From Gammaproteobacteria bacterium (lineage in GTDB: Bacteria > Pseudomonadota > Gammaproteobacteria > UBA1113): a stretch of 64,000 nucleotides of DNA. Location: NCBI GenBank assembly GCA_021773295.1, contig JAJFKI010000007.1, positions 5,046 through 69,045 of the forward strand, given 5' to 3'. Below, in pieces: positions 3,627 through 60,120 of the stretch (positions are counted from its first letter, which is position 1; every line of letters begins with the position of its first letter). Below the pieces are notes generated by a model. That model saw only the letters and a list, made by a program, of their open reading frames with translations, made no database searches and was not told the origin of the DNA. The translations under genes were made by a program, and so were the position numbers.

Positions 3627-6600
3627 ATGGCATTAAAAAACTACATAAAAACTGGCTGCCTCATCGCAACACTGCTAAGCGCACCGCTTGCTTTTGCCTA
3701 TACTGATTACATGTTCCCCAATGTTGTTATCGAACCTGCCGTTGGTTCTTATACCTCTGGCAAAGCGGATGTCATTACCCCACTTTTCTTTCGCAATGAT
3801 AGCTTATGGTTTGGTGATCTCGCCGGTAAGTATGGGCAAGATCAAGATTGGTACACTAGCCTCGGTGGCGGTTACCGCATTATCAATAATGATAACTTTC
3901 TTTCCGGTGCTTATGTATTTGCCGATTATAATGTCACCGTCGATGGCTCAACGTTTTGGGTCGCCAACCCTGGGGTAGAGCTTTATGCTCGCAATTGGGA
4001 CGCTCATCTGAACGGATATTTCCCAATCTCTAGTGATACAAAAACACTAGCCATCTTTTACGGCCCCAATGGCAAAAATCCCGTCAAAGCCTCAGGCCAC
4101 TCTGTCTTTGCTGAGAAGCTTAAGTTAATTGAAGAAATTGGCATGGGGGGTGATCTTGATGTGGGTTATGATATCCCGCGTAGGATTCCAGTGGTTGGCT
4201 TGATTCACATTGATGCTGGTCCTTATTACTCACACTTCCCTGAAGGTGATGATATGATCGGTGGTCAAGTGTCAGTGGAAACACGAGTGAATGAATTTGC
4301 TAAAATTAAATTAACTGACAGTTACGACACGCTTTTCCAAAACTCCTTTCTAGCTAGCCTGGTGATCCAATTTGGCGGTCAAGGTGTACCACAAACCAGC
4401 CCCATGAGTCGTCATCTTGTAGCGCGTCCCGTGCGTCATTTAGGCTCTGCAGCCGTTGGCACTGCCGAGCGCACACGTAAAATTATTTCTGATGATCGCG
4501 TGATGGTGGAGCTCTTTGGTAATATTTGGTACTTCACCTCTCAAGGTGGTTTCCCATTTGATAAAGCATTCGGCACAGACAATTGTACGGCTGAATTTCC
4601 TTGCGACAATGCTAGTTTTAATCAAATAACACTCAATGATATCAACGGGTTTTCTGTCAATGCATTACTCTTCTTCAAGCCAGGGAGTTATAGCGTTAAT
4701 AGCAGCGGCACTAATCCCAATGAAATTACCCTTCTAAATGGCATGTCTGCCTATGGCCGAACAGATAATTACACCATGGCTGCGGCCGATGACAACCGAC
4801 CAACGTTCTTTGGTACCTTTGATTTAGCAGGCAATAATTTAGTGACCAATGTTAACTTCCAAGGTACTGGTACCAATAAGTTGGTAGGTATCGATGCGGA
4901 TAATGCACCTAATTTAACGCTTAATAAAGTCCGGGTGAGTCATTATACGGGCACCAGTGGCAACACGGTCATGGGTATCGACATTGATAACAGTGCTAAC
5001 TTAAGCATGACCGATGTTGATGTCAATTTTATTCAAGGGGCTAATGGCAGTAACGGAACCAATGGTACCAATGGCGCTAACGCCTCTGGCGCAGGAGGCA
5101 TTGGTGGTAATGGTACGGTAGGAACTAATGGCACCAGTGCTGATAATGCCATTGGCATTAATCTCAATGGAGACACCAATGCTAGTTTAAGCACAGTAAC
5201 CGTCTCTAATATCGCCGGTGGCACGGGTGGTAACGGTGGTACTGGCGGTGCGGGTGGTTCTGTTACTAATCCCGATGCGGCGGCGCAAGGTGGTAGCGGC
5301 GCTGCTGGTGGTGTTGCTGGCTCCGGCGGTAATGCAATCGGTCTTGATATGGTTAGCAGTACCGCTACGATTGATACGCTGTCAATCACCAGTGTCACTG
5401 GTGGCCAAGGTGGCAGTGGTGGCAACTCCGGCAATGGTGGCTCAGCTGATAATGACAATAACTTTGACGCGGGTGGCGGAGCACTCAACGTAAACGCCGG
5501 TACTGGTGGCGGCGGTAGTAACGGCGGTAATGGCGGCAATGGTGGTGCAGCGACTGGGTTTGTCGATACAGGCGATACTATCACCCTAAACAATAGCTCA
5601 ATCACAACCATCAGTGGCGGTAGTGCCGGCGCTGGCGGTAATTCAGGTGCAGGCGGTAGCGCAACGGTAGACGATAACATCACCCAAGGAGGTAGCGGTG
5701 TGCTATCTGTCACAGCAGGCACTGGTGGTGATAGCGGTAACGCCGGTAATGGCGGTACTGGTGGTAATAGCATTGGCCTTGATGCAACAACCAGCGCAAC
5801 AACAACGATTAACAATCTAACCGTCAATAATATTAATGGTGGTGTAGGTAACAGCGGTGGCGCTGCAGGTAGTGGCGGAAATGCAACGGCCGATGATAAT
5901 GATCAGCTCAATAACAATGCGCTAACGGCCAATGGTGGCACAGGTGGTGATAGTGGTAATGGTGGCAATGGTGGTACTGGCGGCACTGCCACAGGGATCC
6001 ACAACGATAGCAGTACCATGACCATCAATACAGCCACCGTATCAACGGTCACTGGTGCTAATGGCGGCCTGGGCGGCGTGAGTAATCAGGCCGGCGATGC
6101 GGATACTTCAGACAACCTCTCATCCTTTGACAATGCAGGGCTTACGCTCACTGTCACGGCTGGCACGGGTGGTACCGGTGGTGTGAGTGGCACTGGTGGT
6201 AATGGTGGCGTCGCTATTGGCATCGACAATGATCAAAGTGCCGTGAGCAACCTAAGCACCGTCACGATTACCAGCGTGACTGGTGGTAGTGGTAATAGCA
6301 GTGGTAATGCAGGCCGTGGTGGTAATGCCAACGCTAATAATAATGACGAAGCTGCTACCGGCCAGAATAGTTCAACTGCGGGCAATGGCGGTCTGGGCGG
6401 CACGAGTGCCAATGGTGGTTCAGCTGGCTTAGCCGTTGGTCTTCGCTCTAGAAATTCAAGCCAAAACACCATCAGCAATAGTACTATTTCATACATTAGC
6501 GCCGGCACAGGCGGCGCTGGTGGTAATGGCGGTGCTGGTGGTAATTCCAATGCGAACTCAAATGGGATTGGCGACACGGGCACATTAACCGTGAATGCAG

Positions 6601-7859
6601 ATGATGCCGGTAACGGTAATGCAGCGGGTAATGGTGGCACGGGTGGTGATGGCTTTGGTATTACATCTGATAGCACCAGTGGTGTCACAATGACCTCAAC
6701 TAACCTAACACAAATCAATGGCGGCGCTGGCGGTGCCGGTGGTAGTGGTGGCGCCGGTGGTAGCTCGAGCGCAGATCAAAATTCAGTGGGGCTTTCCGCT
6801 AACATTATTGCCTCTGCCAACGACGCAGGTAATGGCGGTAATGGTGGTAATGCTGGTAATGGTGGCCTGGGTGTTGGTTATAGTGCGACAGGTAGTAGCA
6901 CCAATAACTTAACGGGCGGCACTATTAGCAATATTACAGGGGGTAATGCCGGTGCTGGTGGTATTGCAGGTAATGGTGGTAGTTCAAACACTAATAGCAA
7001 CACCACCCTCAATAGATCCATAACCGCCAATGCAAACAACGGTGGCAATGGTGGTGTTGGTGGTAATGGTGCCCTTGGTGGTAATGCTTTTGGTATCAAC
7101 GCAACCAGTTCTGCGACCCTCACCCAGACTAATGGCACTAACATTCAACAAATCGTTGCGGGCAGCGGCGGCAATGGTGCAGCCGGCGGCATAGGCGGCG
7201 GCAGTAATGCCAATAGCAATAGCATCCAAGCGGTGGGCGATACCCTAACGGTCAATGGTGCCATTGCTGGCTTAGGTGGAGTTGGTGGCACGGGTGGCGT
7301 GGGTGGCCGTTCGGCAGGCGCCAATGCTGTTACAAGTGCAACCATTAATATTACAAACAATACCATCACTCAAATTACGGGTGGCCAAGGCGGTATTGGT
7401 GGCAATGGCGCGCTGGGTGGCTCTGCCAGTACCAATAATAACACCGTTGCAGTCCCAATAGTCGGAAGTGCAACGGCAGGTACGGGTCGCGATGGCGGTG
7501 ATGGTGGTAATGGCGCCAATGGTGGTGATGCGCGCTCAACGGATGACAATGGTGGTAGTGGTACCATCAATGGCGTTGGCCTCACCCTCAGCAACCGTAC
7601 CGCTGGCAATGGTGCTAACAGTGGTGCTGGCGGCAATGGCGGTGATGCAAACTCAAACGGTAATACACCTGGTCTAACGCAAACACTCGGCACACCAGGT
7701 GATGGCGGCGACAGTGGCACTGGTGGTGATGGCGGTGATACTGATTCAAATACAGGTACTGCGGGTAGCGCTGCTAATGCTGGTACAGCAGGTGCCGTGG
7801 GACTAGGTGGTACTGGTGGTGCAGCTGCAACAGGTGGCGCGGGCGCTACCGAACCATAA
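3627..7859 (+). CDS. Secreted 1410-aa glycine/asparagine/threonine-rich repeat protein, putative surface adhesin. N-terminal ~300-aa globular, possibly beta-barrel, domain followed by >15 degenerate ~75-aa Gly-rich repeats
   Basis: Signal peptide MALKNYIKTGCLIATLLSAPLAFA; N-terminal region with alternating aromatic/hydrophobic beta-strand-like pattern; remainder dominated by TAGTGG(D/G)SGN(A/G)GNGGTGG / IT(S/T)VTGG modules; single uninterrupted ORF. Confidence 0.6.
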   Translation: MALKNYIKTGCLIATLLSAPLAFAYTDYMFPNVVIEPAVGSYTSGKADVITPLFFRNDSLWFGDLAGKYGQDQDWYTSLGGGYRIINNDNFLSGAYVFADYNVTVDGSTFWVANPGVELYARNWDAHLNGYFPISSDTKTLAIFYGPNGKNPVKASGHSVFAEKLKLIEEIGMGGDLDVGYDIPRRIPVVGLIHIDAGPYYSHFPEGDDMIGGQVSVETRVNEFAKIKLTDSYDTLFQNSFLASLVIQFGGQGVPQTSPMSRHLVARPVRHLGSAAVGTAERTRKIISDDRVMVELFGNIWYFTSQGGFPFDKAFGTDNCTAEFPCDNASFNQITLNDINGFSVNALLFFKPGSYSVNSSGTNPNEITLLNGMSAYGRTDNYTMAAADDNRPTFFGTFDLAGNNLVTNVNFQGTGTNKLVGIDADNAPNLTLNKVRVSHYTGTSGNTVMGIDIDNSANLSMTDVDVNFIQGANGSNGTNGTNGANASGAGGIGGNGTVGTNGTSADNAIGINLNGDTNASLSTVTVSNIAGGTGGNGGTGGAGGSVTNPDAAAQGGSGAAGGVAGSGGNAIGLDMVSSTATIDTLSITSVTGGQGGSGGNSGNGGSADNDNNFDAGGGALNVNAGTGGGGSNGGNGGNGGAATGFVDTGDTITLNNSSITTISGGSAGAGGNSGAGGSATVDDNITQGGSGVLSVTAGTGGDSGNAGNGGTGGNSIGLDATTSATTTINNLTVNNINGGVGNSGGAAGSGGNATADDNDQLNNNALTANGGTGGDSGNGGNGGTGGTATGIHNDSSTMTINTATVSTVTGANGGLGGVSNQAGDADTSDNLSSFDNAGLTLTVTAGTGGTGGVSGTGGNGGVAIGIDNDQSAVSNLSTVTITSVTGGSGNSSGNAGRGGNANANNNDEAATGQNSSTAGNGGLGGTSANGGSAGLAVGLRSRNSSQNTISNSTISYISAGTGGAGGNGGAGGNSNANSNGIGDTGTLTVNADDAGNGNAAGNGGTGGDGFGITSDSTSGVTMTSTNLTQINGGAGGAGGSGGAGGSSSADQNSVGLSANIIASANDAGNGGNGGNAGNGGLGVGYSATGSSTNNLTGGTISNITGGNAGAGGIAGNGGSSNTNSNTTLNRSITANANNGGNGGVGGNGALGGNAFGINATSSATLTQTNGTNIQQIVAGSGGNGAAGGIGGGSNANSNSIQAVGDTLTVNGAIAGLGGVGGTGGVGGRSAGANAVTSATINITNNTITQITGGQGGIGGNGALGGSASTNNNTVAVPIVGSATAGTGRDGGDGGNGANGGDARSTDDNGGSGTINGVGLTLSNRTAGNGANSGAGGNGGDANSNGNTPGLTQTLGTPGDGGDSGTGGDGGDTDSNTGTAGSAANAGTAGAVGLGGTGGAAATGGAGATEP

Positions 7860-9762: not shown

Positions 9763-10932
9763 ATGACGAAAGTATCTGATGCGCCGAAGCTTAATATCGC
9801 TTCTAAAGTAATACACGCAGGTCAAAAACCTGATCCGAGCACGGGTGCAATTATGCCCCCCATCTACGCAACATCAACCTACGTTCAACAAAGCCCTGGG
9901 GTACACCAAGGTTATGAATATTCTCGTAGCCAAAACCCTACGCGTGAAGCCTATGAACGCTGCATTGCGGCCTTAGAAAACGGTGCTCGTGGCTATGCCT
10001 TTGCCTCAGGCATGGCTGCCATTGCAACTGTGTTAGAGTTATTGGACTCAGGTTCACATATTATCGCTAGTGATGATTTATACGGCGGCACATTTCGTCT
10101 CTTTGATAAGGTCAAACAACGCTCAAGTGCACTAGCATTTAGTTTCATTGATTTCACGAAGATCGAGAATATCGAACATGCAATTCAAGAGAACACTAAA
10201 TTATTGTGGATAGAAACACCCACAAACCCAATGTTAAAACTTGCTGATATTGAACAAATAGTCGCCCTCGCGAAACGTAAGAACTTATTAACAGTTGTCG
10301 ACAATACCTTTGCCACGCCAATTAACCAGCAACCGCTTGCACTGGGCGCTGATATTGTCATGCATTCAGCCACCAAATACATTAGCGGTCACTCCGATGT
10401 GGTGAATGGCATCGTGGTGGTGAATGACAATCCTGAGTTGATTGAACAACTGGCATTTTTGCATAATGCTATGGGCGCTATCGCTGGTCCTTTTGATAGC
10501 TTTCTCGCCTTACGTGGCGCCAAAACCTTAGCCATCCGCATGCAGCGGCATAATGAAAATGCCACGGAATTGGCTCCGTGGCTAGCGAGTCACCCCAAAA
10601 TAGAACAAGTCATTTACCCAGGGCTTGACAGTCACCCTCATCACGCCCTAGCTAAACAACAAATGCAAGGTTTTGGTGGCATGATTAGCATAATCTTAAA
10701 AGGTAGCTTGGCAGATACCACTCGTTTTTTAGAACGCTGTCATTTATTTGCTCTAGCAGAGAGTTTGGGGGGCGTTGAGAGCCTAATTGAACACCCAGCG
10801 ATTATGACCCACGCTTCCATTCCAGCGGAAAATCGACGTGAATTGGGGATTATTGATGGGTTAGTACGCCTTTCCGTAGGAATCGAGCATATTTCTGATC
10901 TTAAACATGATTTAGATTATGCATTGCGTTGA
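9763..10932 (+). CDS. Cys/Met-metabolism PLP-dependent enzyme (cystathionine gamma-synthase/gamma-lyase/beta-lyase family)
   Basis: 389 aa; family-typical N-terminus (..HAGQ....TGA...PIY.TSTY) and TKY(I/L)SGHSD lysine region. Confidence 0.85.
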   Translation: MTKVSDAPKLNIASKVIHAGQKPDPSTGAIMPPIYATSTYVQQSPGVHQGYEYSRSQNPTREAYERCIAALENGARGYAFASGMAAIATVLELLDSGSHIIASDDLYGGTFRLFDKVKQRSSALAFSFIDFTKIENIEHAIQENTKLLWIETPTNPMLKLADIEQIVALAKRKNLLTVVDNTFATPINQQPLALGADIVMHSATKYISGHSDVVNGIVVVNDNPELIEQLAFLHNAMGAIAGPFDSFLALRGAKTLAIRMQRHNENATELAPWLASHPKIEQVIYPGLDSHPHHALAKQQMQGFGGMISIILKGSLADTTRFLERCHLFALAESLGGVESLIEHPAIMTHASIPAENRRELGIIDGLVRLSVGIEHISDLKHDLDYALR

Positions 10933-11041: not shown

Positions 11042-11878
11042 ATGTCCAAAGTATTAAAGACATTATTCGCAATTGATTTCGCATCCTCGTCGAAAGAGGC
11101 ACTGCAAGCTTTAAGATACATACAGGGACATTACGGCGTTGAGCTGTACTTGATGCATGTTATCACCAGCTTCTGGCGTTCTTGGCTTTCATCCGGTCTC
11201 CACGAAAAAGAACAATTACAACGCCTCGAAAGCTGGAGTTCGCGCTTACGAGAACAACAACTAGCACCGGATCACTTAATCATTAAAACGGGCACAGCTG
11301 CGAGTGCGATTATTTCTGAAGCCAATAAGCTCGATACCGATCTAATCCTCATCGGCGGCCATGTGACTAAAAAGCGTTTTGGCACAGAGAAAACAGCCAT
11401 GATGGTGGTACGACACGCATCTCAATCGGTACTGCTTTGCAAAAATCATGTGTTTAATAAAGTACTTTGCGGTGTCGATGGTTCAAAAAGTTCTGCGAGA
11501 GCATTGAATCAAGCGATTAACGTCTGCCGTGCGAATGATTTATCACTCACCATTGCTAGTGTATTACCGCGCTTAGACTTTAACCCACTGGGCATGCCCA
11601 ATGAAGATATTGAAGCCAGAGAACAAGCCTATCGTGAAGCTAAAATCATTGAAATAAATGAATTCCTTGATCACTTCGATTTCTCAGGCGTGCAAACGAA
11701 TCGCTGCTATCCCTGGGGCACCACATCACGGGTTATGCTTAATATGGCATTCGATTTTGACTATGACTTAATCGTTATCGGCGCAACGGGACAATCCATA
11801 TTAAGTAATGTCTTAATGGGTGGTACTGCTGAACGCATCCTCAAAGCAGCTCCTTGTTCACTTCTGATTACTCGCTAA
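11042..11878 (+). CDS. Universal stress protein, tandem UspA domains
   Basis: Two Usp-type domains (..DLILIGGHV..; ..LIVIGATGQS..LMGGTAERIL..APCSLLI); start at ATG 11042 with aagagggg RBS, not the upstream ATG 11000. Confidence 0.8.
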   Translation: MSKVLKTLFAIDFASSSKEALQALRYIQGHYGVELYLMHVITSFWRSWLSSGLHEKEQLQRLESWSSRLREQQLAPDHLIIKTGTAASAIISEANKLDTDLILIGGHVTKKRFGTEKTAMMVVRHASQSVLLCKNHVFNKVLCGVDGSKSSARALNQAINVCRANDLSLTIASVLPRLDFNPLGMPNEDIEAREQAYREAKIIEINEFLDHFDFSGVQTNRCYPWGTTSRVMLNMAFDFDYDLIVIGATGQSILSNVLMGGTAERILKAAPCSLLITR

Positions 11879-12021
11879 ACCAAAATGAATCTTCGCAACA
11901 CAGCTGTCTTTTCCTTGTCTGAAAAACCATTGAGAATAATGACATGTTCAACGATTAGCAACTGGTTGTTATCATTTTGTTTTTAAAATTCATGACCACA
12001 ATCCACAGACATTCCCACACC

Positions 12022-12030
12022 TTATCCACA
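12022..12030 (+). promoter_or_regulatory. Consensus DnaA box TTATCCACA upstream of nrdA
   Basis: Exact 9-mer; part of a 15-bp arm (cttatccacaagctt) inverted-repeated at 12144-12158. Confidence 0.5.
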
Positions 12031-12149
12031 AGCTTTTCCCAGGTTGTTATCTTGCATTTCAAAATCAAACGCTCTATCTTGTAGTTGGAGTGAGGGAAAT
12101 ACCCATATATTGGGGTGCCGGAGTGCACAGACCCCAACACCCTGCAGCT

Positions 12150-12194: not shown

Positions 12195-15038
12195 ATGGAA
12201 ACCATCGAAAGAAATACCTTTATTACGAGTAAAGCATCCGTGAAAGAGAATAATAATAACACAATCACTGAGATTACGGCTAATCAACCTGGCACCATAA
12301 GAGTCATTCGTCGCAATGGCAAAGTTGTCGCCTATGACGATAGTAAAATTGCCATCGCCTTAACCAAGGCATTTATTGCCCAAGAGCAAGAAGCCACCGA
12401 GCACGCTTCAAGCAGCATCCATGACAAAGTTGAACAATTAGTAAGTGCTATTACCACTGCCTTCCAACGACGCTTACCCAGTGGTGGCACCATCCATATC
12501 GAAGATATCCAAGACCAAGTTGAATTAGCGCTCATGCGTGCTGCAGAGCACCAAGTTGCCAGAGCCTACGTCCTTTACCGTGAAGAACACCGCAAAGCGC
12601 GTGAAGCAGAGCCAGCTATTAAAGATGAAAATTTATTACACATAACCCTCGATGATGGTATGCGAGTACCTCTGGATATGAATCGTTTAAAAAACATCGT
12701 AACTGAAGCTTGCCACGGCATTAGTGATGTTGATGCGGACATTATCATCAAAGATGTACATCGCAATTTATACGATGGCGTTAGCTTGGACGATATTCAA
12801 AAAGCACTCGTGCTTTCTGCTCGCACACTTATCGAAAAAGAACCTAACTACACGCATGTCACTGCAGGCATTTTATTACATTCCTTACGGCGTGAAGCTT
12901 TGAACTTTTTGAACTTAGCAAAAGAAGCGTCATTCAAGGAAATGAAACAACTTTACCCCACCTATTTCAAAGCTTATCTTAAAAAAGGCATTGAATGTGA
13001 GTTACTGGATCCAAACTTACTCAACTTTGACTTAGATAAAATTACTAAAGCTATCGACCCCACGCGTGATTTTAATTTCACCTATCTTGGCTTACAAACA
13101 CTCTATGATCGCTATTTTATTCATAGTAATGACACGCGCTTTGAATTGCCACAAGCCTTTTTCATGCGCGTTGCCATGGGCTTAGCGGGAGAGGAAAGTG
13201 ATAAAGAAGCCAGAGCGATTGAATTTTACAATTTGCTCTCTTCTTTCGATTACATGAGTTCAACGCCAACCTTATTCAACTCAGGCACCTTGCGTCCACA
13301 GTTATCCAGCTGCTACCTCACCACTGTCCCTGATGATCTAGATGGTATTTATAGTGCCATTAAAGACAATGCCCTACTGTCTAAGTTCGCTGGCGGACTT
13401 GGTAATGATTGGACACCTGTGCGTGCTATGGGTGCAAAAATCAAAGGAACCAATGGTAAGTCTCTTGGTGTTATCCCCTTCATGAGTGTGGCCAATGCCA
13501 CCGCCGTTGCCGTTAATCAAGGCGGTAAGCGCAAAGGCGCTGTGTGTGCTTACCTAGAAACCTTCCACAAAGACATTAAAGAATTTTTAGATTTACGTAA
13601 AAATACTGGCGATGAACGCCGTCGTACTCACGACATGAATACTGCCAATTGGATCCCAGATTTATTCATGAAGCGAATCATGGAAGATAAAAATTGGATT
13701 TTATTCTCACCCGATGACGCACCTGATTTACACGATCTCTACGGCCCACAATTCGAAGAAGCCTACCTTGCTTATGAGAAAAAAGTAGCGACTGGTGAAA
13801 TTAAAAACGTCGAAGTAACACCTGCAAAAAATTTATGGCGTAAAATGTTAAGCCTATTATTTGAAACAGGTCATCCATGGGTCACCTTCAAAGATCCCTG
13901 TAATATCCGTTCGCCACAACAACATGTAGGCGTGGTACACAGTTCAAATCTCTGCACTGAAATTACTTTAAACACATCCAACGATGAAATTGCCGTCTGT
14001 AATTTAGGCAGCATCAATTTACCGGCTCACATTGAAAATGGCGCCATTAATAAAGCGAAATTAGAAAAAACCATCAACACAGCCATTCGCATGTTGGATA
14101 ATGTCATTGATATTAACTATTACTCCGTACCACAGGCGAGACGCTCTAATTTGCGTCACCGCCCTATTGGTCTTGGTATCATGGGTTTCCAAGATGCTCT
14201 GTATAAATTAGGCATCAATTACTGCTCTGATGATGCGGTACAATTTGCTGATACCTCGATGGAATTAGTCAGTTATTTTGCCATTCAAGCTTCATGTCAT
14301 TTAGCCAAAGAACGTGGTGCTTATTCAAGCTTTGAAGGCTCTTTGTGGAGCAAAGGTATTTTGCCCATTGATTCCATCGATTTATTAGAAAAAGCACGTG
14401 GTGGTTATTTAGAACAAGACAGAAGCACAACGTTAGACTGGGACAAATTACGTAAAGCCGTGAAAACCCATGGTATGCGTAATTCAAACTGCATGGCTAT
14501 TGCGCCAACAGCAACAATTTCTAACATCGTTGGTGTTAGCCAATCCATCGAACCTACCTACCAGAACCTCTACGTTAAATCCAATTTATCCGGTGAATTT
14601 ACCGTGGTTAATCCGTACTTGGTCAAAGACTTAAAAGCCTTAGATCTTTGGGATCAAGTAATGGTCAATGACTTGAAGTATTTCAATGGTAGTGTCCAAG
14701 CCATTGAACGTATACCTGCAGTTATTAAACAGCGCTATGCCACTGCTTTTGAAATTGATGCAATTTGGCTGGTAGAAGCCGGCGCCAGACGCCAAAAGTG
14801 GATTGACCAATCTCAGTCATTAAATCTTTACATGGCAGAACCTTCTGGTAAAAAACTAGATAATCTGTACCGAACTGCTTGGTTGCGTGGTTTGAAAACC
14901 ACTTACTACTTGCGTAGCTTGGGTGCCACCAATGCAGAAAAATCAACAATACACGATCACGCACTGAATGCCGTTAACGTGCAGCAAGCACCGCAAGCTT
15001 GTGCCATTGATGATCCTGAATGCGAGGCTTGCCAGTAA
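12195..15038 (+). CDS. nrdA: Ribonucleoside-diphosphate reductase alpha subunit, class Ia, with N-terminal ATP-cone
   Basis: 947 aa; ATP-cone ([13 protein letters not shown]), catalytic NLCTEI...C, C-terminal tail cysteines; ggagggggtt RBS. Confidence 0.95.
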
Positions 15039-15097
15039 TGACTGGATTTAAGTCTAACGAACAAGAAAGTAAATACAGTTACAAAAAGGAATCTATT

Positions 15098-16252
15098 ATG
15101 TCAACTTTAGAATTATGTGAAGAGGATGTTGCAATGATTGATGAAGATTTATCAAACATTATGAATGCCACAGCAGATCAAGCACAAAACGCAAGGATCA
15201 CGGGGCTTGAGACGATTGAAATGGGTGCAGCCCGTATTCAAGTGGATGATAAAAAAATCATAAATTGCCGCGCCGACTTAAACCAATTAGTGCCCTTCAA
15301 ATATGAATGGGCTTGGAAAAAATATTTAGACGCTTGTGCGAATCATTGGATGCCTAATGAAATCAATATGGCGCCTGATGTCGCCTTGTGGAAAGATCCA
15401 AACGGCTTAAGTGAAGATGAACGTCTCATTATCATGCGAAACTTAGGCTTTTTCTCCACTGCCGATTCATTGGTAGCCAATAACTTAGTGCTCGCGGTTT
15501 ATCGACATGTCACTAACCCTGAGTGTCGTCAGTACTTACTACGCCAAGCCTTCGAAGAAGCCTTGCATACTCATGCTTACCAATACGTCATTGAAAGTTT
15601 AGGTTTAGACGAAGCCGAAGTCTTTAATATGTATCGCGAAGTGCCATCAGTAGCTACAAAAGCAAATTGGGCGTTAAAATACACGCAAAGCTTAGGCGAC
15701 CCAACCTTCCAGACAGGAACGCCTGAAACCGATCAACGCCTACTACGCGACTTGATTGCTTTTTATGTCATTTTTGAAGGGATCTTCTTCTATGTAGGCT
15801 TCACTCAAATTCTTTCCATGGGTCGTCGAAATAAAATGGTGGGAACATCAGAGCAGTTCCAATATATTTTACGCGACGAATCTATGCACATGAACTTTGG
15901 TATCGATGTTATTAATCAAATCAAAATTGAAAATCCACACTTATGGACTGATGCTTTCCAACAAGAAGCCATTACCATGATTCGTGAAGGTGTAGACTTA
16001 GAAGCTCAATACGCCATCGACACCATGCCACGCGGCATCCTTGGCATGAATGCGGGTATGTTTAAAGAATATTTAGAATACATCGCTAACCGTCGTTGTG
16101 CGCAAATCGGCTTACCAGAGCAATACCCAGGCGCTGACAATCCATTCCCATGGATGAGTGAAATGCTCGACTTAAAGAAAGAGAAAAACTTCTTTGAAAC
16201 CCGCGTGATTGAGTACCAAGCCGGTGGTACCTTGTCCTGGGACGATGATTAA
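15098..16252 (+). CDS. nrdB: Ribonucleoside-diphosphate reductase beta subunit
   Basis: Di-iron/tyrosyl-radical R2 fold (FEGIFFY..F); start at ATG 15098 with aaagga RBS rather than the overlapping 15020 start. Confidence 0.93.
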
Positions 16253-16278
16253 TCGTTTTTTACCCCCCCTACCCTAAT

Positions 16279-16299
16279 CTTCCCCCGCAAGGGGGGAAG
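16279..16299. terminator. GC-rich hairpin (8-bp stem, GCAA tetraloop) between convergent nrdB and the lipoprotein gene
   Basis: cttcccccGCAAgggggaag, a near-perfect inverted repeat (one extra G bulge); no clean U-run, so may also be a small repeat element (see 17424-17490). Confidence 0.4.
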
Positions 16300-16341
16300 A
16301 AATAAGCAGTGCAGAGCATTTTATTTAGCGAGATTATAATT

Positions 16342-16557
16342 TTAGTCTTTAGTTACTTGATGGCCAATCAAACCACCAACTGCAGCACCTGTTGCACCGC
16401 CAATAACAGCACCAGAGCCTGAACCACCGATTGCGGCACCTGCGGCACCACCAACCACAGCGCCAGCCATTGTGCCTTTTTCTTGTTTCGTCATGGAGCA
16501 GCCCGCTAAGACCGCGGCAAGAACAATTGTTCCAGTAATCGTCAATATCTTTTTCAT
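16342..16557 (-). CDS. Glycine-zipper lipoprotein (Pcp/SlyB-like)
   Basis: 71 aa; lipobox LAGC; GxxxG-rich glycine-zipper segment (VVGGAAGAAIGGSGSGAVIGGATGAAVGGLIG). Confidence 0.7.
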   Translation of the reverse strand: MKKILTITGTIVLAAVLAGCSMTKQEKGTMAGAVVGGAAGAAIGGSGSGAVIGGATGAAVGGLIGHQVTKD

Positions 16558-16667
16558 AATATCCCCTCACACGTATGTGTAATTATTGAACTACACCATT
16601 AGTTTAGCAAAGATTAACAGAAAATCATGGCTGGATAGATAATTTTTAAAAGAGGCTTACTGGTTGA

Positions 16668-17354
16668 TTATTCAATAATACTGGGATGCAATAAGACCTC
16701 ATCCAGCAATTGCTGCGTAAAACACGTGCGAAGATAAAATCCCCGTGGCAAGGTCATTATAGCGACGCCATCAGGCCCGATGGCTTTTGTTAATGCACTG
16801 GCATTGGCGCCTTTTGGTCTTACTTGCATATACTTTCCATACTTTGCCGTAATTTGTTCGATTTCGCCAAAAGCTACTTTGTCCATGAGCTCTTGCCAGT
16901 CTTGACGCAAAATAGCTTCTTGTAAGGACGTGGCTTGCCACAAAAACCCTTGGCCTATTACCCTATCTTTCAAAGGGCGCCCTTTCTCCGTCAAAATCGG
17001 TATCCATAGTACTTTTGTCAACTTGGCTTTTACTTCTGAGTTTTCCCAGGTGAGACCTAAGATGTTATATAAAGGTACGATACTGACATAGGTGGACTCT
17101 AAAACTTTACCCGCTGAGTTTATGGGGATCGTTTTTAATTCTATGCCTAATTGTTGGAAGTCTGGCTCTGGCTTCGAGCCTGCTGAAGCTCCTAGACATA
17201 ATTCTAATAACAGCCCTGCTATTCCTTTGCTTTTCTTTGGATCCTCGGGGAGCTCTACCCCTAGGTTATCAGCCAATTGGGCTATGGGCATACCGGCGAT
17301 GGCCTGTACGCGTTTTAGCAATTGTTGTTCCGTGCTCGGCGGGCTAATTTTCAT
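16668..17354 (-). CDS. mutH: DNA mismatch repair endonuclease MutH
   Basis: 228 aa; collinear with E. coli MutH including the catalytic D-x6-E-x-K (DFQQLGIELKTIP) and GASAGSKPE, LTLPRGFYL motifs. Confidence 0.85.
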   Translation of the reverse strand: MKISPPSTEQQLLKRVQAIAGMPIAQLADNLGVELPEDPKKSKGIAGLLLELCLGASAGSKPEPDFQQLGIELKTIPINSAGKVLESTYVSIVPLYNILGLTWENSEVKAKLTKVLWIPILTEKGRPLKDRVIGQGFLWQATSLQEAILRQDWQELMDKVAFGEIEQITAKYGKYMQVRPKGANASALTKAIGPDGVAIMTLPRGFYLRTCFTQQLLDEVLLHPSIIE

Positions 17355-17423
17355 GATTATTCCTTGTTTTTCTAGTTGTTATAATAATATTTTAATGTTT
17401 TTCTTTAAGTTATGGTTAGTCTG

Positions 17424-17490
17424 CTTATCCCCCACCCTGCAGGGGGAGGGAATAGGAAGTGCTTATTCCGTAGCCCGCAAGGGAGAAAGA
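17424..17490. repeat. GC-rich multi-hairpin element upstream of mutH
   Basis: ccctgcaggg palindrome, ggaata...tattcc hairpin and cccGCAAggg tetraloop hairpin; shares the GCAA-hairpin and aataagca motif (inverted) with the element at 16262-16325. Confidence 0.3.
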
Positions 17491-17604
17491 ACAATGGATA
17501 TGCTAGCTAAAAAAAATGCGCAATACCAGTCTTCTCGTCAAGCATAGTGTCCAATTATTGGCTATAGTCATAGTAACTGTTCAATAAGATAACAGGGGGT
17601 TGTT

Positions 17605-18315
17605 TTGGGAAAGATGGCTAAATACATCGTCCTGCCGATGGTAAGTATGGCCATGGGGGTTTGCGAGAGTGCTTTTGGCGGTCAGTTTGCTGAGCGTTAT
17701 TGTAAGCAAGCAGGTTTCCATTGCATTAACATCAAATCAGGCGATAGTTGGCAAAAACTCTTTCCCGATGAAAAACACCGCGATGTCGTCAAACGTGTCA
17801 ATCGCATGAATACTCGCTTACGCAAAGGCATGCGTATCGCTGTACCTAATAATTTGCCTTATACCGACCGTATGGACATTGCGCCCTTTCCACAACTCAT
17901 TAATCCACCCGGTAGAAAGCTCGTGGTTGTTGATCCAAAAGTGTTAGCGTGGGGTGCCTACAATCGCCAAGGCGAGTTAGTTCATTGGGGTCCTGCATCC
18001 GGCGGCAAAAACTATTGCCGAGACGTGCGCAGAGGCTGTCGCACCGTACGCGGCACTTATTCCTTTTACCATAAACGCGGCGCTGGTTGTCGTTCAAGCA
18101 AATATCCTCTAAGACGTGGCGGGGCACCCATGCCCTACTGCATGTTCTTTTACAAAGGATATGCACTACATGGCTCACCCGTAGTGCCAGGCTACCATGC
18201 CAGCCACGGCTGCGTACGCTTATTTAATAATGACGCAAAATGGCTGAACACAGAATTTATTGATTTACCAAGTTACAAAAGAAGGGGCACAAAAATAATA
18301 ATAAATAATTACTGA
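17605..18315 (+). CDS. L,D-transpeptidase (YkuD/ErfK family) with N-terminal LysM domain
   Basis: Catalytic HGSP...GYHASHGCVRL motif; LysM-like segment (INIKSGDSWQKL...RVNRMN...GMRIAVP); N-terminal signal. Confidence 0.8.
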   Translation: MGKMAKYIVLPMVSMAMGVCESAFGGQFAERYCKQAGFHCINIKSGDSWQKLFPDEKHRDVVKRVNRMNTRLRKGMRIAVPNNLPYTDRMDIAPFPQLINPPGRKLVVVDPKVLAWGAYNRQGELVHWGPASGGKNYCRDVRRGCRTVRGTYSFYHKRGAGCRSSKYPLRRGGAPMPYCMFFYKGYALHGSPVVPGYHASHGCVRLFNNDAKWLNTEFIDLPSYKRRGTKIIINNY

Positions 18316-24042: not shown

Positions 24043-27000
24043 CTAAACAAAGTTTTGCGTAATATCCGTATCGTAGTAAATATCGCCGACTAATGTCAAT
24101 GATTGAACGTGTTGATAGACTTCACCGCCAACGTTAATCGTACCAAGCGCTTGCCATCCTGCACCCGTTTCAATATTGAGTACATCACCTGTGTTACCCT
24201 GTACGATTAGCGTATTTGGCGTGTCAACTGCGCCAAAGGTGTTAATTTCCGTGGACAGATCAAATACATCGGATAAGCCTAAGGTCAAGGTATTATTCCC
24301 GGTGCCGGTGATGTCGACAACTTCAATACCCTCGTGGATTAAATTGTTGATACTGGTTAAATCCACGACTTCACCACTGCCAGATAATTGTAGAGTATCC
24401 AGACCTGCACCACCATCAACTTTCGTCGTGTCTGCAGCATCATAAATGAGGGTGTCATCACCTGCCCCAGCGCGGTAAACATCATTACCACCCTGGCCAT
24501 CTAAGGTATCATCGCCTTGCATCGCAACAAGGTGGTTATCAAAGACATTACCTGTTAAGGCATCCGCCCCACTGGTGCCTTCGAAATCAATAATACCATT
24601 CGTATTTGAACCATAGATAACAAATAGCTCACCTTTACCTGGTCCACCACCAAGTGGGCTTTCGGGACTTCCTAAGATAATATCGTCATAGCCATCGCCA
24701 TCGAAATCGGTGACTTCTAGGTTAGCGCCCGCAATATCATCACGGCCAAATCGTTCATTGGCAGTATCACCATTGATGACATAGCCATTAAAGCCATCAA
24801 TATTTGAACCCACTCCATTTAACGTAAACGGTGCCGTTATGTTTGCCGAGCCGTAAATGACATACAAATCACCCGCATTAGTAAGCCCTTCATCACCTAA
24901 GGGGGCAACAAGGATTAAATCACTATAACCATCACCATTGACGTCCCCTGAGCCACTAACCGTTAACTCACTGGCCGCACTAGCAATAACGGCAAATCCA
25001 ACACTAGGCATACCGCCTACGGCAATACTATTAAATGTCGCTGGTGTCATTGACGTTAACGAAGGACCCCCGTAAATCACATAACCGACAATATCATTTT
25101 CAGCATTTGGCGTGCGTGTGGTAACAAATATATCATTATAACCATCTCCATTGACGTCTCCCGCACCAACAATGTTACCTTCTGCTTCAAAATCAACATC
25201 CGTAAGATCCGCGCCAGCATCAACGACATCAATAAATATACCGTTAGTTCCATTTAATAAACTTGCATCTAATGGGTTGGTGTAAGCACTCGTGCTACCG
25301 TAAACAATGGCAAATCCATCCGTGTTACCATCATCTACTGTTCCAAAGCCAATATCATCTAAACCATCGCCGTTAATATCACCTAAGTTCGCAATTCTTT
25401 GTGTTGCCGTCTCGCCAGTGCCCTCAAATTCAAAGCCGTTAGTGCCATTAACGGTATTCACATCAAGGGTCGCACCAAAACTGGTACTACCAAATATAAC
25501 AAAATGATTGCCACCGTTATTTGTTGTCATTGCAAAATCTGCAATACCATCGCCATTAACATCACCTAAGCCTTGGGCATCGTCAATATTTCCAAAGTTT
25601 AAGTTATCTTCAATTGTAAAACCGCTGAGATCATCAATATGAGTTTCCGCTGAAAGGATTGTGCTTTGTCCGAAAATGACTCTACCAACATTAGTGCCTA
25701 TTGTAGAGGTATAGGAAACCAGCATATCACCAATACCATCACCATTGACATCCCCAAGACCTGCAACTGCAAAGTCGATCTCATTAGCAAACGTGCCACC
25801 AACTGCAACATCACCTGTAATGACAAATCCTTGTGTGCCCGCGCCTAAAGCAGTCTTATTAATGCTACCTGTTACGCGCGTTGCACCACCATAAACAATA
25901 TAGGCTTCGCCATCATCAAAACCTGAAATCGTATTTTCAACGCCACGCGCATTGACGATGATATCGAGAATGCCATCACCATTATAATCACCCACACCCA
26001 CGGCACCACCAAGCGCGTCATCACTACCAATACCATTAAGTGTAAATCCAACAGCATTTGTAAGCGTTGTAGAAACAAGCTCATCAAAGCCAACCACTGT
26101 CACACTCACTGTCGCTGAATCTGTGGCGCCTTGTGAATCTGTTATCGTATAGGTGAAAGTGTCAACAGCCGTTTGCCCACCCGTCAAATTATTATGAAAG
26201 CTCGTACCAAAAGCATCATAAGTAAAGTTACCACTGGCATCCACGGTAACCGTTGCTCCATTCACACTGGTGGCATCAAAACTGGTGACACTAAAGGTAT
26301 CTCCCGTATCGATATCACTATCGTTTGTTACCACGTTACCTGCATCTTTACTTTTCGGATCAGGCAAGCTAACCGTATCAAAGGTGTCATCAACCGCTGT
26401 CGGTGCATCATTCACACCAGTCACAGTAATGGTCACTGTGGCTGTATCTGTACCACCATTACCATCATCGACTGTATAGGTAAAGGTATCGTTGAGGGTT
26501 TGGCCAACTGCTAATGCTTGCAAAGCTGCAGCCACCGTTGAATCATAAGTAAAACTACCATCGCCATTAACATTCACTGTTGCACCATTGACACTAGCTG
26601 CATCAAACACTGTGACTGTTAAGGTGTGGCCATCTGGATCGGTATCATTAACAAGTACGCCAGGCGCTGCAATATTAAGTGGCGTATCTTCATTGGTCGC
26701 ATCGCTGTCATCCATTGCATCAGGGACAAAATTAACGCCCGTTACCGTGACAGTAACCGTCGCTGTATCCGTACCGCCATTACTATCATCTATCGTGTAT
26801 GTGAAGGTGTCATTGAGGGTTTGGCCAACTGTTAATGCTTGTATTGTAGCAGATCCTGTTGGATCATAACTGAAACTACCATTGCCATTGACCGTTACAG
26901 CTGCACCACTGGTGCTGACTGCATCAAAGCCCGTGACGGTTAAACCCTGGCTTTCTGCATCTGTATCATTCACTAATACTCCTGGCACACCCTCATTAAG

Positions 27001-30000
27001 CACTGCATTTTCATCGGTTGCATAACCATCATCCACAGCATCTGGGGCATCATTAATGCCCGTGACATTAATGGTGACTGTCGCCGTATCGGTGCCAGTG
27101 TTGCCATCATCGATGGTATAAGTGAATGTATCATTGAGGGTTTGACCCGTATTGAGTGCTTGTATCGTCGCAGCACCGGTTGGATCATAACTATAGCTAC
27201 CATTGGCGTTGACATTAACTGTGGCACCACTCATGCTCGTTGCATCAAAGGCTGTGACTGTGATACCGTGACTTTCTGGATCCGAATCATTAACTAATAC
27301 ACCCGGCGCACCCGCATTAATCACGCTATCTTCATTCGTGGCATTAGCATCATCCACAGCATCTGGAGCATCATTAATACCTGTGAGTGTCACTGTGACT
27401 GTCGCCGTATCGGTGCCACCGTTACTATCATCAATCGTATAAGTGAATGTGTCATCAAGGGTTACGCCCGTGTCTAATGCTTGTATCGCCGCAGCACCCG
27501 TTGGATCATAACTGAAGCTACCATTGGCATTGACATTAACCGTGGCACCATTCACACTCGTTGCATTAAATGCTGTGACGGTTAAACCATGGCTCTCTGC
27601 ATCGGTGTCGTTGTTCAACACACCAGGCACACCAATATTCAACGCTGTATCTTCATCAGTTGCGTAACCATCATCTACTGCATCCGGAGCATCATTGACA
27701 CCCGTCACTGTGACGGTGACCGTCGCCGTATCGACGCCACCATTACCATCACTCACAGTATAATCGAACGTGTCATTAAGGGTAACACCCGTATTTAAGG
27801 CTTGAATGGTTGCGGCACTGGTAGGATCATAACTAAAGCTACCATCAGCATTGACATTAACTACGGCACCACTCGCACTCGCTGCATCAAACGCAATAAC
27901 TGTCAGTGTATCACTGGTATCAACGTCCGTATCACCATTTAAAACACCTAATGCTGCATTGACATTTAGCACAGCATCTTCGCTCGCATTGTAACCATCA
28001 TTATCAGCGACTGGCACATCATTTTCCCCGGTGATGGTCACCGTTACTGTAGCAACATCTGAGCTACCATTACCATCATCGACCGTATAACTAAAGCTGT
28101 CCACGGCTGTTTCACCGACCGCTAAGGATTCAAACTGACCATTAGGGTTATAAGTGACATCGGTCCCGTTATTGGTGACAAGACCTGTCGTACCCGCGAG
28201 GTTAAGACCGCTAATGGTTAGTGTGTCATTAAGATCTGGATCAAGATCATTAGCTAAGACGTCAACAAGCGTGCCAGCGTTATCTTCACTCACACTTGGT
28301 GTGTCTGCTACGGCTGTGACAGGATCATTAACACCTGAAATATGCATGGTAACCGTTTGCGTCGCTGTAGCACCATGCGCATCTTGTGCAGTATAAGTAA
28401 AAACATCCTGCGCCGTTTCTCCAACAGATAAATAATTAAAATTATTGCCTGGCTCATACTGAAAGTCACCACCACCAAGATCAGTGACTAATCCTATCGC
28501 ACCTGTTGTATTTAAACTTATAAAGGTTACATCCTCCCCTGAGTCAGTGTCAAAGTCGTTACCAATAGGAGAGGGATATATAGGAAAAACATCATCTTCT
28601 GTCAAAAAGTTATTGTCTGCAACTAAGACCATTGGATCATCAACACCAAGCACATTAATTGTCACATGAGCTGTGTCAGTAGCAATCCCATCGGTTATTG
28701 TATAATTGAAAGAATCATTAGTTGTTTGGCCCCCTGGTAAAATTTGTATGATAAAGACCGATGTTGGATCATACGTAAAACTGCCATCGCTTAGTAATGT
28801 AACATCAGCCCCTAGAAGCGAAGTAAACATACCAATTGGTGAAGTTACCGTCAATGTATCTAACGTATCAACATCTGTGTCATTGGCCAATATGCCACTT
28901 GCGGCATTAATATTAAAAATCGTATCTTCAGTAGCACCAACATAACTATCATTTACTGCAATAGGCGCATCATTAACCCCTTGAATGCTATAAGTGACCG
29001 TTGCTGTATCTGTGCCACCATTGCCATCACTGATTGTGTAAGTAAACACGTCTGTAACTACTTGGCCTTCAGCAAGTGCTTGGATATCTGGGTTTGTATT
29101 AGTGATGCTATATTGGTTTAATCCTGATACAGAATCAACGAATAAGTTACCGTAAGTGCCGCCTCCGAAGGAAGGACTTGAAGAAACACTACCAGCAACA
29201 TTTGTAACCGTCAGTGTATCTAATGTATCAATATCTGTGTCATTTACAAACAAGCTCGCACCAGTGTCTGCGAACTGAAATATACTTGGAAGATTCGCAT
29301 CTTCAATCAAAGGTATTGGCTGCGCATCATTGCCTGCCGTTGGTGCATCATTTGCACCTGTGACGGTAATATTTAAATTAGCTGTAGCTGTGGCGCCTTG
29401 ATCATCGGTGATTTGGTATGAGAATGAATCAATCACAGTTTGCGTCGCTGCTAATGCTTGAACATTTGCGGCGGCGTTGTCTAGTGTGTAGCTGTAAACA
29501 CCGTTGCTGGCAATGGTTACCGAGCCATAAGTGCCCATAACTACATTACCTACATTCGCCGGTAGACCAGCCACTGCTGTAACTGAAAATGATGAGCCAT
29601 TATCTACATCAGTATCATTAGTTGTAACTGTACCTCCTGCAACTAAAGTGCCATCTTCAGCCACATCATTTGAATCATCATTTGCTACGGGTGCGTCGTT
29701 GATACCCGTAATCGTCACCGTCACACTGGCTGTCGAGAACCCGCCATTACCATCACTCGCCGTATAACTAAAGGTATCGGTCGCGGTTTCTCCCACGGCT
29801 AAGCTTTCAAATTGTCCATTGGGATCGTAGGTGACATTCGTACCGTTATTAATAACACTGCCCAGTGTGCCCGCCGTATTCACAGCACTCACCGTCAACA
29901 CATCACTCGTATCCGGATCCGTATCATTGCTTAAGACATTAATCGCAACAGCAGGACCATCTTCATCGGCGGCGCCTACATCTGCAACGGCCGTTGGGCC

Positions 30001-31497: not shown

Positions 31498-31640
31498 ACA
31501 ACCACCAACCTATAACTCAACAACACACTAGCAAAACCTGCCAAAAGAAGTTTTGCTCTCAGTATTTCATAAGTATAGTAAAGCTATGCGAGAATGCTTA
31601 TTAAGTTTTTTTTAATAAAGAAGAAATTTGTTAGTAACGC

Positions 31641-32942
31641 TTAAGGTTCTTTAAAGGCTCTGTCTGTCGCCTTGAAGAATGGATTAAGAATATAGTCTAA
31701 TACTGACTTTTTACTCGTAATAATATTGACGCTTGCCATCATCCCAGGAAGAATTGGGAGTTTCCTGCCTTTTTTGTTCTTCAGATAATTTTTATCTGTA
31801 GCAACTAATACTCGATAATAACTTTTCCCTTCTTCACTCTGCATAGTATCGGCACTGATTACAGCAACTTTTCCTTGCATACCACCAAAAATTGCAAAAT
31901 CATAAGCAGTGAACTTAACATAGGCTTCATCTCCAACTTTGATAAAGGCGATATCTTTTGGATCAACCTGCACCTCTACTGTCAATGTATCATCCAGCGG
32001 TACAAGTTCCATGATGTCTTCACCAGGAGGGATAACGCCGCCGATAGTGCTAATGTTAACATTGTTTACAATACCATTAACAGGTGAAACGATGGTCGTC
32101 CTGAATGCTCTATCTCTTGATGCTTCGATCCCTTTTTGCAAAATAATAAATTCTGACTGTAAATTTTTAAAGTTTTTATAGGCGTCTGCTTTAAACTTTT
32201 CTTTTTCTTCAATAATGCTGCCTTTAATTTCATTGACCTGTCGTTGCACGCGAATCAACTCTAAGTCTGACATAATCTGCTCTTTTACTAATGGCTTTAA
32301 TATATTTAATTCTTTGTTAGCCAAATCATAACTTCTTTGCATTGTCGATAAGCTTGTTTTTAAATCTGACATCCTTGCTTTAAAGATTTCAGTTTCACTT
32401 TTCACTAGCTCAGGGGCATTCTTTCTGACTTCCTGAGGGAAATCAATTGAAGTATCACCATTAATTTCAGCTCGGTAGCGAACAATTGTAGTGAGTAATG
32501 TCAAATATTTTATGTACTCTTCATTGTAATCCGCTTTAAAACGTGTATCGTCCAATTTTAACAAGGGTTGACCTCTTTTAACACGATCACCGTCTTTAAC
32601 AAATATTTCTTCAATAATCCCACCTTCTAAACTTTGAATAACTTTTACTTTTGATGAAGGTATTACTTTGCCTTGCCCAATAGTCGTTTCATCGATATAG
32701 CCAAGTCCTGCCCAAATAATCGCAATTAATAATAAGGCAATAACGGCATACAAAAAGAGGTTAGCTGCTCTTGGCGTAGTAATTAACAATGCTTGTTTGC
32801 TATCTGAGACAAAATCAATATCGTCAAGCTCTAAGCCATATAGTTTTTCCATATGCTTTAAATATTTCTGACGTGCTTCTAAATGTGATGAATGCACATC
32901 ATCAGACTTGTTCTCAACATCATTGTTTTTTTCGTCACTCAT
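31641..32942 (-). CDS. Type I secretion periplasmic adaptor (HlyD/LapC family)
   Basis: N-terminal TM anchor, long coiled-coil, C-terminal beta domain; start set at MSDEK (8-nt overlap with ABC transporter stop), the tracked ORF extends further. Confidence 0.85.
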   Translation of the reverse strand: MSDEKNNDVENKSDDVHSSHLEARQKYLKHMEKLYGLELDDIDFVSDSKQALLITTPRAANLFLYAVIALLLIAIIWAGLGYIDETTIGQGKVIPSSKVKVIQSLEGGIIEEIFVKDGDRVKRGQPLLKLDDTRFKADYNEEYIKYLTLLTTIVRYRAEINGDTSIDFPQEVRKNAPELVKSETEIFKARMSDLKTSLSTMQRSYDLANKELNILKPLVKEQIMSDLELIRVQRQVNEIKGSIIEEKEKFKADAYKNFKNLQSEFIILQKGIEASRDRAFRTTIVSPVNGIVNNVNISTIGGVIPPGEDIMELVPLDDTLTVEVQVDPKDIAFIKVGDEAYVKFTAYDFAIFGGMQGKVAVISADTMQSEEGKSYYRVLVATDKNYLKNKKGRKLPILPGMMASVNIITSKKSVLDYILNPFFKATDRAFKEP

Positions 32943-53957: not shown

Positions 53958-54118
53958 TTTTCTCTAGTACCTCTTCCATGTTGTTGAATCATTTTAATGA
54001 ATGCTTAAGCATAAGTACACCTTAGTGTCTATTTGTTTCAATTTAAAAATCATTAAGAGCCTTATTAATAGGTATATGGCCCTCACTACGCTATATTTTA
54101 AGTATGGGTGGTTAGGAT

Positions 54119-54577: not shown

Positions 54578-54586
54578 GGTATTCAG

Positions 54587-55987: not shown

Positions 55988-56074
55988 GGCGTGAAATGAC
56001 GCACAGCTATTGTATTGCCATTATAATTTCCTTAAACTAAACAATTAAATAGAGCAAATCAGAGGGACAAGGGA

Positions 56075-58223: not shown

Positions 58224-58226
58224 AAG

Positions 58227-60111: not shown

Positions 60112-60120
60112 GAGTTAACC

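Follow-up and report, generated by a model that had tools for sequence, protein, structure and literature searches.

The question raised by this locus is what the two GC-rich elements on either side of mutH and a small lipoprotein gene are, and whether they have anything to do with mismatch repair. An earlier note on the same DNA had described them as hairpins with GCAA tetraloops in an AT-rich genome, and had proposed that they could be REP-like elements or the scars of an insertion. The window, that is the whole 64-kb stretch of DNA analysed here, comes from an uncultured, sparsely sampled gammaproteobacterium that is Legionellales-like and has a GC content of ~42%. The elements have a GC content of 52–64% against 42% for the window. 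They are GC-rich as described, and the genome is AT-rich only moderately. The features of the locus are collected in Table 1.

Table 1. Features of the nrdB–ykuD region (window positions), with the inverted motif pairs of the related contig L127 in the last row.
Feature	Position	Strand	Remarks
nrdA	12195-15038	+	
nrdB (ribonucleotide reductase small subunit)	15020-16252	+	Pfam PF00268, E = 1.9e-91
Spacer 1 (nrdB stop / lipoprotein gene stop)			89 nt; contains element 1
Element 1 core, G/C-rich class II potential intrastrand triplex motif	16265-16300	-	ITxF-rule scan; minus strand 16300-16265 reads 5'-CTTCCCCCCTTGCGGGGGAAGATTAGGGTAGGGGG-3'
Element 1, Y arm	16299-16292	-	CTTCCCCC
Element 1, first loop	16291-16287	-	CTTGC
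Element 1, R arm	16286-16279	-	GGGGGAAG
Element 1, second loop	16278-16273	-	ATTAGG
Element 1, third strand	16272-16265	-	GTAGGGGG
TGCTTAT head of element 1	16302-16308	-	plus strand ATAAGCA
Lipoprotein gene, glycine-zipper, 71 aa	16342-16557	-	lipobox LAGC
Conserved region 5' of lipoprotein gene	16558-16640	-	extended -10-like TGCTAAACT at 16609-16601
mutH (GATC nicking endonuclease, methyl-directed mismatch repair)	16668-17354	-	NCBIfam and PDB 2AZO
Spacer 2 (mutH / ykuD, divergent)			250 nt; contains element 2
Element 2, unit a	17421-17459	+	CTGCTTAT CCCCCACCC TGCA GGGGGAGGG AATAGGAAG; imperfect palindrome
Element 2, unit b	17460-17492	+	TGCTTAT TCCGTAG CCC GCAA GGG AGAAAGAAC; 3-bp hairpin then purine run
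ykuD (YkuD-type L,D-transpeptidase)	17605-18315	+	Pfam PF03734; right boundary of spacer 2
L127, inverted triplex-motif pairs	6306-6463 and 11931-12085		

The genes had been named correctly. MutH scored 309 and 281 bits against NCBIfam equivalogs with cut-offs of 243 and 230 bits, matched Pfam PF02976, and was aligned to E. coli MutH 2AZO with E = 6e-72. Its PEPDFQQLGIELK retains the catalytic D-x6-E-x-K. By these matches, the mutH product is beyond doubt a bona fide MutH. The 71-aa ORF, called a lipoprotein, has the LAGC lipobox and three Pfam glycine-zipper matches (Gly-zipper_Omp, Gly-zipper_YMGG and Rick_17kDa_Anti). The nrdB and L,D-transpeptidase calls agree with PF00268 and PF03734. The nrdB and lipoprotein genes are convergent, with nrdB bordering spacer 1 on the left, and dusA, on the minus strand, is the next gene after ykuD. 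The conserved region upstream of the lipoprotein gene contains the extended -10-like TGCTAAACT, which suggests that this gene has a promoter of its own. A promoter-like match was also predicted there by the promoter scan, and the sequence TGCTA[C/A/T]ACT of this region is present in the related loci L001, L003 and L007 as well.

Element 1 is strictly intergenic: 89 nt separate the stop codons of nrdB and the lipoprotein gene, and the element lies within them. Positions 16279-16299 read cttcccccgcaaggggggaag. The best fold was a 9-bp stem at 16278-16300 formed by the Y and R arms, closed by the five-nucleotide loop GCAAG in place of the GCAA tetraloop proposed earlier. The location given for this element in the earlier note was right, and one g had been dropped from its letters (six G, five quoted). 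Element 1 folded more strongly than shuffled sequences, with z-scores of -3.4 for minus-strand RNA and -2.8 for plus-strand DNA. No other hairpin was found in the 89 nt of spacer 1. Neither strand has a T-run after the stem, and element 1 was absent from the predictions of a terminator scan of the window.

For classification, the ITxF rules (Holder et al. 2015) were re-implemented. They describe three consecutive segments on one strand (Y-R-RH) with stems of 6–15 nt, loops of 1–6 nt and at most one mismatched triplet, only G*GC, A*AT and T*AT being allowed; the G/C-rich class has a stem G/C content of >50%. Element 1 falls within this definition with a stem of 8, loops of 5 and 6 and no mismatch, and in an alternative register with a stem of 9, loops of 5 and 4 and one mismatch. 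Its R arm is 67–75% GC, which places it in the G/C-rich class. It is the sole G/C-rich triplex motif in the 64-kb window. When the window was shuffled with dinucleotides preserved, G/C-rich motifs with a stem of at least 8 appeared in 1 of 60 shuffles (mean 0.017 per shuffled window). Only two G-run patterns of the G-quadruplex type exist in the window, and the G-rich strand of element 1 is one of them. When single-stranded, this strand may adopt a triplex or G-quadruplex structure. Rfam was searched with the window at the gathering threshold and with the region at a permissive threshold, and no family was returned over element 1 or element 2.

A known counterpart of this layout is found in E. 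coli. The BoxC repeats, which are among the stem-loop repeat families of that species (PMC2267715), were re-described as PIT elements and later as TM_ECO (Holder et al. 2015, PMC4666352, where the 2000 PIT-element study by Maher and co-workers is cited). There are 23–32 copies of TM_ECO in E. coli. The consensus is CCCTCNCCC N3-6 GGGNGAGGG N3 GGGNGAGGG, and type A reads CCCTCTCCC TTGA GGGAGAGGG TTA GGGTGAGGG (Holder et al. 2015, PMC4666352). The same study reported that PIT elements were without promoter or terminator activity, that in-vivo footprinting at one TM_ECO site detected no triplex, and that the triplex motifs of E. coli turn over rapidly and are linked to unstable intergenic spots (PMC4666352).

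Like element 1, the BoxC/PIT/TM_ECO repeats are intergenic, G/C-rich and ~35 nt long, and their G-rich strand has G-quadruplex potential. In both, a pyrimidine arm is followed by a loop of 3–6 nt, a purine arm, a short second loop and a mirror purine arm, and both contain a T*AT triplet, that is a T in the third strand. The second loop of type A, TTA, falls inside the ATTAGG loop of element 1. They differ in the stem, which is CTTCCCCC in element 1 and CCCTCNCCC in TM_ECO, in its length (8–9 against 9), and in the second loop (4–6 nt against 3 nt). The TM_ECO consensus had no match in the window. Since element 1 lies off this consensus, it is of the same structural kind but of a separate sequence family. 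Taken by the rules, element 1 thus fits a G/C-rich class II intrastrand triplex motif of the BoxC/PIT type from another sequence family. No second copy of element 1 was found in the 64 kb; the density of BoxC/TM_ECO in E. coli is about 1 copy per 200 kb, so that a stretch of this size is a small sample for judging copy number.

The three-part layout was also found far from this locus. Contigs of public genomes were scanned with the pattern CTGCTTAT-N0-6-CCCCC-N4-9-GGGGGA, and at least 121 matches were obtained, whose CTGCTTAT head was imposed by the pattern itself. Among the matches listed, most came from high-GC taxa and none from the source genome. Many of the listed matches share with the minus strand of element 1 a layout that the pattern did not request, namely a pyrimidine arm, a loop, a complementary purine arm, a short linker (often with TTA) and a mirror purine segment. 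Strict triplex motifs were present in 12 of the 121 matches listed, and the same 8-kb loci contained 33 further G/C-rich motifs. An Rfam search of 31 loci gave no family covering such elements. Metagenomes were scanned with the purine half of element 1, GGGGGAAGRTTAGGGWAGGGGG, and 18 contigs of 36–56% GC with GGGGGAAGGTTAGGGAAGGGGG were recovered; by eye, the matching CCTTCCCCC arm stands just 5' of the purine half in ~13 of them.

Such motifs are also found in L127, from the same uncultured clade (HtpG 78% identical). Within 16 kb, it contains one class I motif and two copies of an inverted pair of triplex units, each pair ~150 bp long. The units of the inverted pairs resemble element 1 in being intergenic polypyrimidine/polypurine hairpins with (T/G)CAAG loops and a mirror purine third segment, and the hairpins of the two match at 17 of 21 positions. 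In contrast to element 1, they are arranged as ~150-bp inverted pairs, lack the TGCTTAT head, and have an extra small hairpin between the purine arm and the third strand (12-nt loop). A 28-mer from the L127 repeat is 100% identical to the extreme end of the contig L149, which is from another species.

Element 2 proved to be a different case. Its described contents, ccctgcaggg, ggaata..tattcc and cccGCAAggg, were all found. The two units are in tandem, 38 nt apart, and each consists of a TGCTTAT head and a core of a C-run and a G-run. Under the triplex rules, element 2 gave no register of any class, even with two mismatches and a stem of 7, and folding of the whole element was no better than that of shuffles (z from -0.1 to -1.5). 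The rule scan and the fold z-scores rule it out as a triplex motif or a strong hairpin cluster. One might speculate that unit a is a triplex motif whose middle arm was lost, CCCCCACCC being the reverse complement of GGGTGGGGG and standing beside GGGGGAGGG.

The elements nevertheless have sequence in common. An inverted motif, ATAAGCA/TGCTTAT, is at 16302-16308 on the minus strand and at 17422-17428 and 17460-17466 on the plus strand. Three copies of the composite TGCTTAT-N2-10-CCC-N4-GGG were found (0.01 expected), each of them in element 1 or 2. The decamer CCCGCAAGGG occurs twice against 0.09 expected, and unit b and element 1 have CCCGCAAGGG-AGAA in common in direct orientation. The best local alignment of the two elements, CCCGCAAGGGGGGAAGAA with CCCGCAAGGGAGAAAGAA, is direct too. 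This sharing of motifs is not due to chance. With moderate confidence, the units of element 2 may be regarded as degenerate relatives of element 1 with a probable common origin. Such ancestry is not secure, because the TGCTTAT heads of the two elements are inverted relative to each other and the CCCGCAAGGG-AGAA core has the same orientation in both. The window contains one strict motif and two look-alikes, all within 1.2 kb, and no further copies of the units of either element were found in the 64 kb. A 22-nt inverted repeat at 16316-16337 and 17498-17519 is asymmetric about the elements and was taken as chance.

The history of the locus was read from relatives. In L007 (MutH 57% and YkuD 55% identical), the order is sodB, an aminotransferase gene, a 4HBT thioesterase gene, a Cys/Met enzyme gene, nrdA, nrdB, two extra genes, a Gly-rich lipoprotein gene, mutH, ykuD and an acyl-CoA dehydrogenase gene; the long-range order of the window is the same from sodB through the acyl-CoA dehydrogenase gene. 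The order nrdB-lipoprotein-mutH is also kept in L003, whose lipoprotein is 76% identical to that of the window, and in L149 and L147. In L149, dusA and not ykuD is upstream of mutH. In L007, the gap between ykuD and mutH is only ~23 nt. Elements 1 and 2 are absent from L007, L149, L147 and L003. From these gene orders, the mutH-lipoprotein pair is judged to be ancestral at this position, and the proposal that the elements are scars of an insertion is refuted, on the criterion set in the earlier note, by four relatives with the same order and no elements.

The spacer between nrdB and the lipoprotein gene behaved otherwise. L147, from SRR28385529, is the closest of these relatives, with NrdB 93% identical, mutH DNA ~87% identical and the DNA upstream of the lipoprotein gene ~87–95% identical. 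Its nrdB/lipoprotein spacer is unalignable with that of the window and contains a different, unrelated GC hairpin with 10-nt arms TGCAGGGGCG and CGCCCCTGCA and a loop of ~10 nt. A canonical terminator is found at this spacer in L003, L149 and L150. In L007, MITE-like palindromes flank the lipoprotein gene on both sides. Among the relatives examined, a hairpin is thus constant at this spacer and its identity changes fast. The constant hairpin of changing identity fits selection for a 3'-end hairpin between convergent genes; the changing identity also fits triplex motifs marking unstable intergenic spots, as in E. coli. Five relatives with five differing hairpin solutions in one convergent-gene spacer provide a natural example of rapid motif turnover.

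We consider it probable that element 1 is a turnover-prone triplex motif of the BoxC/PIT type in a terminator position, that element 2 is its weakly structured kin, and that neither is tied to mutH. On the G-rich (minus) strand, the pyrimidine and purine arms would pair as the 9-bp hairpin, and the second purine segment, a mirror of the purine arm, would fold back as a third strand through G*GC, A*AT and T*AT triplets. Since four relatives have another hairpin at this position, element 1 most probably supplies the 3'-end hairpin of the nrdB and lipoprotein transcripts, despite the missing U-run. Alternatively, it may be a neutral or selfish motif that is quickly gained and lost. Element 2 would consist of two GC-rich units with little structure, placed in tandem between the divergent mutH and ykuD genes and presumably of common origin with element 1. 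That element 1 is just a bidirectional terminator of nrdB and the lipoprotein gene, or stabilises their 3' ends, with the third segment incidental, overlaps in part with this explanation and is possible though doubtful. Some hairpin stands at the spacer in every relative examined, a canonical terminator in three of them, and element 1 is the only hairpin of the 89 nt and folds more strongly than shuffles. It has the strong GC stem of Rho-independent terminators and the position of the relatives' terminators; unlike them, it has no flanking A-tract or U-tract, there is no U-run on either strand, and the terminator scan omits it. Moreover, chance would very rarely place a third segment in a valid register beside a hairpin, with 0.017 G/C-rich motifs per shuffled window, and the three-part layout recurs across unrelated genomes, both of which speak against a plain terminator.

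Element 2 might instead be an operator whose two tandem sites bind a regulator of both divergent promoters, those of mutH and ykuD. It is upstream of both genes, at a distance of 67 nt from the start codon of mutH and of 115 nt from ykuD, and its units, 38 nt apart, have the same TGCTTAT head. An operator is unlikely, as L007 has no element 2 in its short ykuD/mutH gap, L149 has dusA in place of ykuD upstream of mutH, and a third copy of the head is found just where the lipoprotein gene ends, an improbable operator site. TGCTTAT was also inspected by eye as a LexA-type or other palindromic operator, with no support. That both elements are REP elements mobilised by a RAYT transposase appears quite unlikely too. 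The earlier term "REP-like" holds only in the broad sense of a structured extragenic motif: the elements share with REP/BIME sequences that they are short, GC-rich, extragenic imperfect palindromes of ~35 nt, single and in tandem, clustered, and of a kind often found at gene 3' ends. GTAG is directly 5' of the hairpin of unit b (17470-17473). However, it is missing in unit a and misplaced in element 1, which has no GTAG-type head; only three clustered units exist in 64 kb, no Y1 (RAYT) transposase gene was found among the ORFs of the window, and the three-segment layout, foreign to REP, suits the BoxC/PIT triplex type better. That a mobile element brought mutH and the lipoprotein gene, with elements 1 and 2 as its ends or scars, is extremely improbable. 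The TGCTTAT heads do point inward at both sides of the two-gene block, but the common inverted sequence is just 7–8 nt, the block resembles the rest of the window in GC content, and no transposase, integrase or target-site duplication was found. The gene order, as described above, is the same in four relatives without the elements and is kept over a long range from sodB to the acyl-CoA dehydrogenase gene.

Most likely, the two elements have no specific link to mutH or mismatch repair. In the 64-kb window, dam, seqA, mutS and mutL were searched for and none was found; of the repair genes, only recJ is present. The window contains 174 GATC sites, with an observed/expected ratio of 0.71, which is compatible with Dam and not diagnostic of it. 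A highly improbable further idea is that the inward-facing, structure-prone units around mutH form a lineage-specific family that might turn the mutH-lipoprotein segment into a hotspot of structure-induced deletion or rearrangement, and so into a built-in, possibly reversible mutator route; if true, it would join the local genome instability reported for triplex motifs to a mismatch-repair gene. With the triplex-motif explanation, hairpins that seemed unusual are given a known motif class, which has little significance beyond correct annotation, and BoxC/PIT-type triplex motifs would extend to an uncultured Legionellales-like gammaproteobacterial clade of ~42% GC.

A side issue of more interest is taxonomic. 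The literature on MutH in Legionellales yielded nothing usable. The Legionellales-like clade is not known to belong to the orders to which the Dam/SeqA/MutH system is commonly assigned. The best named matches of NrdB (85–89% identity) and HtpG (69%) are from Legionellales, and those of MutH are from Alteromonadales (~56%). Here, a bona fide MutH is encoded at a syntenic position in a clade with housekeeping proteins most similar to those of Legionellales.

As listed in the table, MutH differs in affinity from the housekeeping proteins NrdB and HtpG encoded in the same window. The Legionellales are not known to belong to the classical Dam/SeqA/MutH orders. Synteny around MutH is conserved in several members of the uncultured clade to which the window belongs. 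No dam gene is visible in the 64 kb of the window. The only repair gene besides mutH in this stretch is recJ (50792-52567, minus strand); RecJ serves as an exonuclease in methyl-directed mismatch repair.

Features of the window and of the closest relative (L147)
Feature	Coordinates	Strand	Description
1410-aa ORF	window 3627-7859	+	signal peptide; very long Gly/Asn/Ser/Thr-rich repeat region
nrdB	window 15020-16252		product closest to Legionellales, 85-89% identity
mutH	window 16668-17354	-	product closest to Alteromonadales, ~56% identity
Cadherin/Big_9 adhesin	window 24043-35091	-	2484 aa; adjoins HlyD/ABC type I secretion pair
htpG	window 45853-47760		product closest to Legionellales, 69% identity
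Tad/Flp pilus locus	window 53088-63415		complete
Hairpin	L147 5072-5195		10-nt arms TGCAGGGGCG and CGCCCCTGCA, loop ~10 nt

The spacer between nrdB and the lipoprotein gene that adjoins mutH carries different elements in relatives. In L147, an unrelated GC-rich hairpin lies exactly at the position of element 1, the triplex motif of the window, between genes that are ~87% identical to their window counterparts. Another relative, L007, has a MITE-like palindromic element of ~165 bp at 4630-4790, 10666-10835 and 11122-11305, of which two copies are 96% identical and the third is diverged; copies flank both sides of the lipoprotein gene. In the window, the upstream region of the lipoprotein gene (16558-16640, minus strand) shows ~95% identity to L147, which exceeds the conservation of coding DNA. 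It contains an extended -10-like sequence, TGCTAAACT, and L001, L003 and L007 carry this sequence as well. A promoter of its own and a conserved 5′ leader are probable for the lipoprotein gene.

Triplex motifs were also found at other loci. A ~150-bp repeat, present in two copies within 16 kb of L127 (6306-6463 and 11931-12085), consists of a pair of triplex-motif units in inverted orientation; in each unit, a small extra hairpin precedes the third strand. A 28-mer of this repeat is 100% identical at a contig end of a different species (L149, 10708-10735), which suggests a multi-copy family common to the clade. In seven low-GC metagenome contigs (L129, L130, L133, L134, L140, L141 and L145), a conserved ~35-nt sequence (ggtgaaaagctttagacaa[a/t]gctgcc...) is located directly upstream of the triplex motif, which points to a possible larger conserved element. 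On a further metagenome contig (L139, 10070-10235), a triplex motif of the element 1 type directly adjoins a CRISPR mini-array of two type I-F-like repeats (Rfam CRISPR-DR4).

Elsewhere in the window, the 1410-aa ORF had no Pfam match, and its GGN codons account for an island of 53% GC between 5 and 8 kb.
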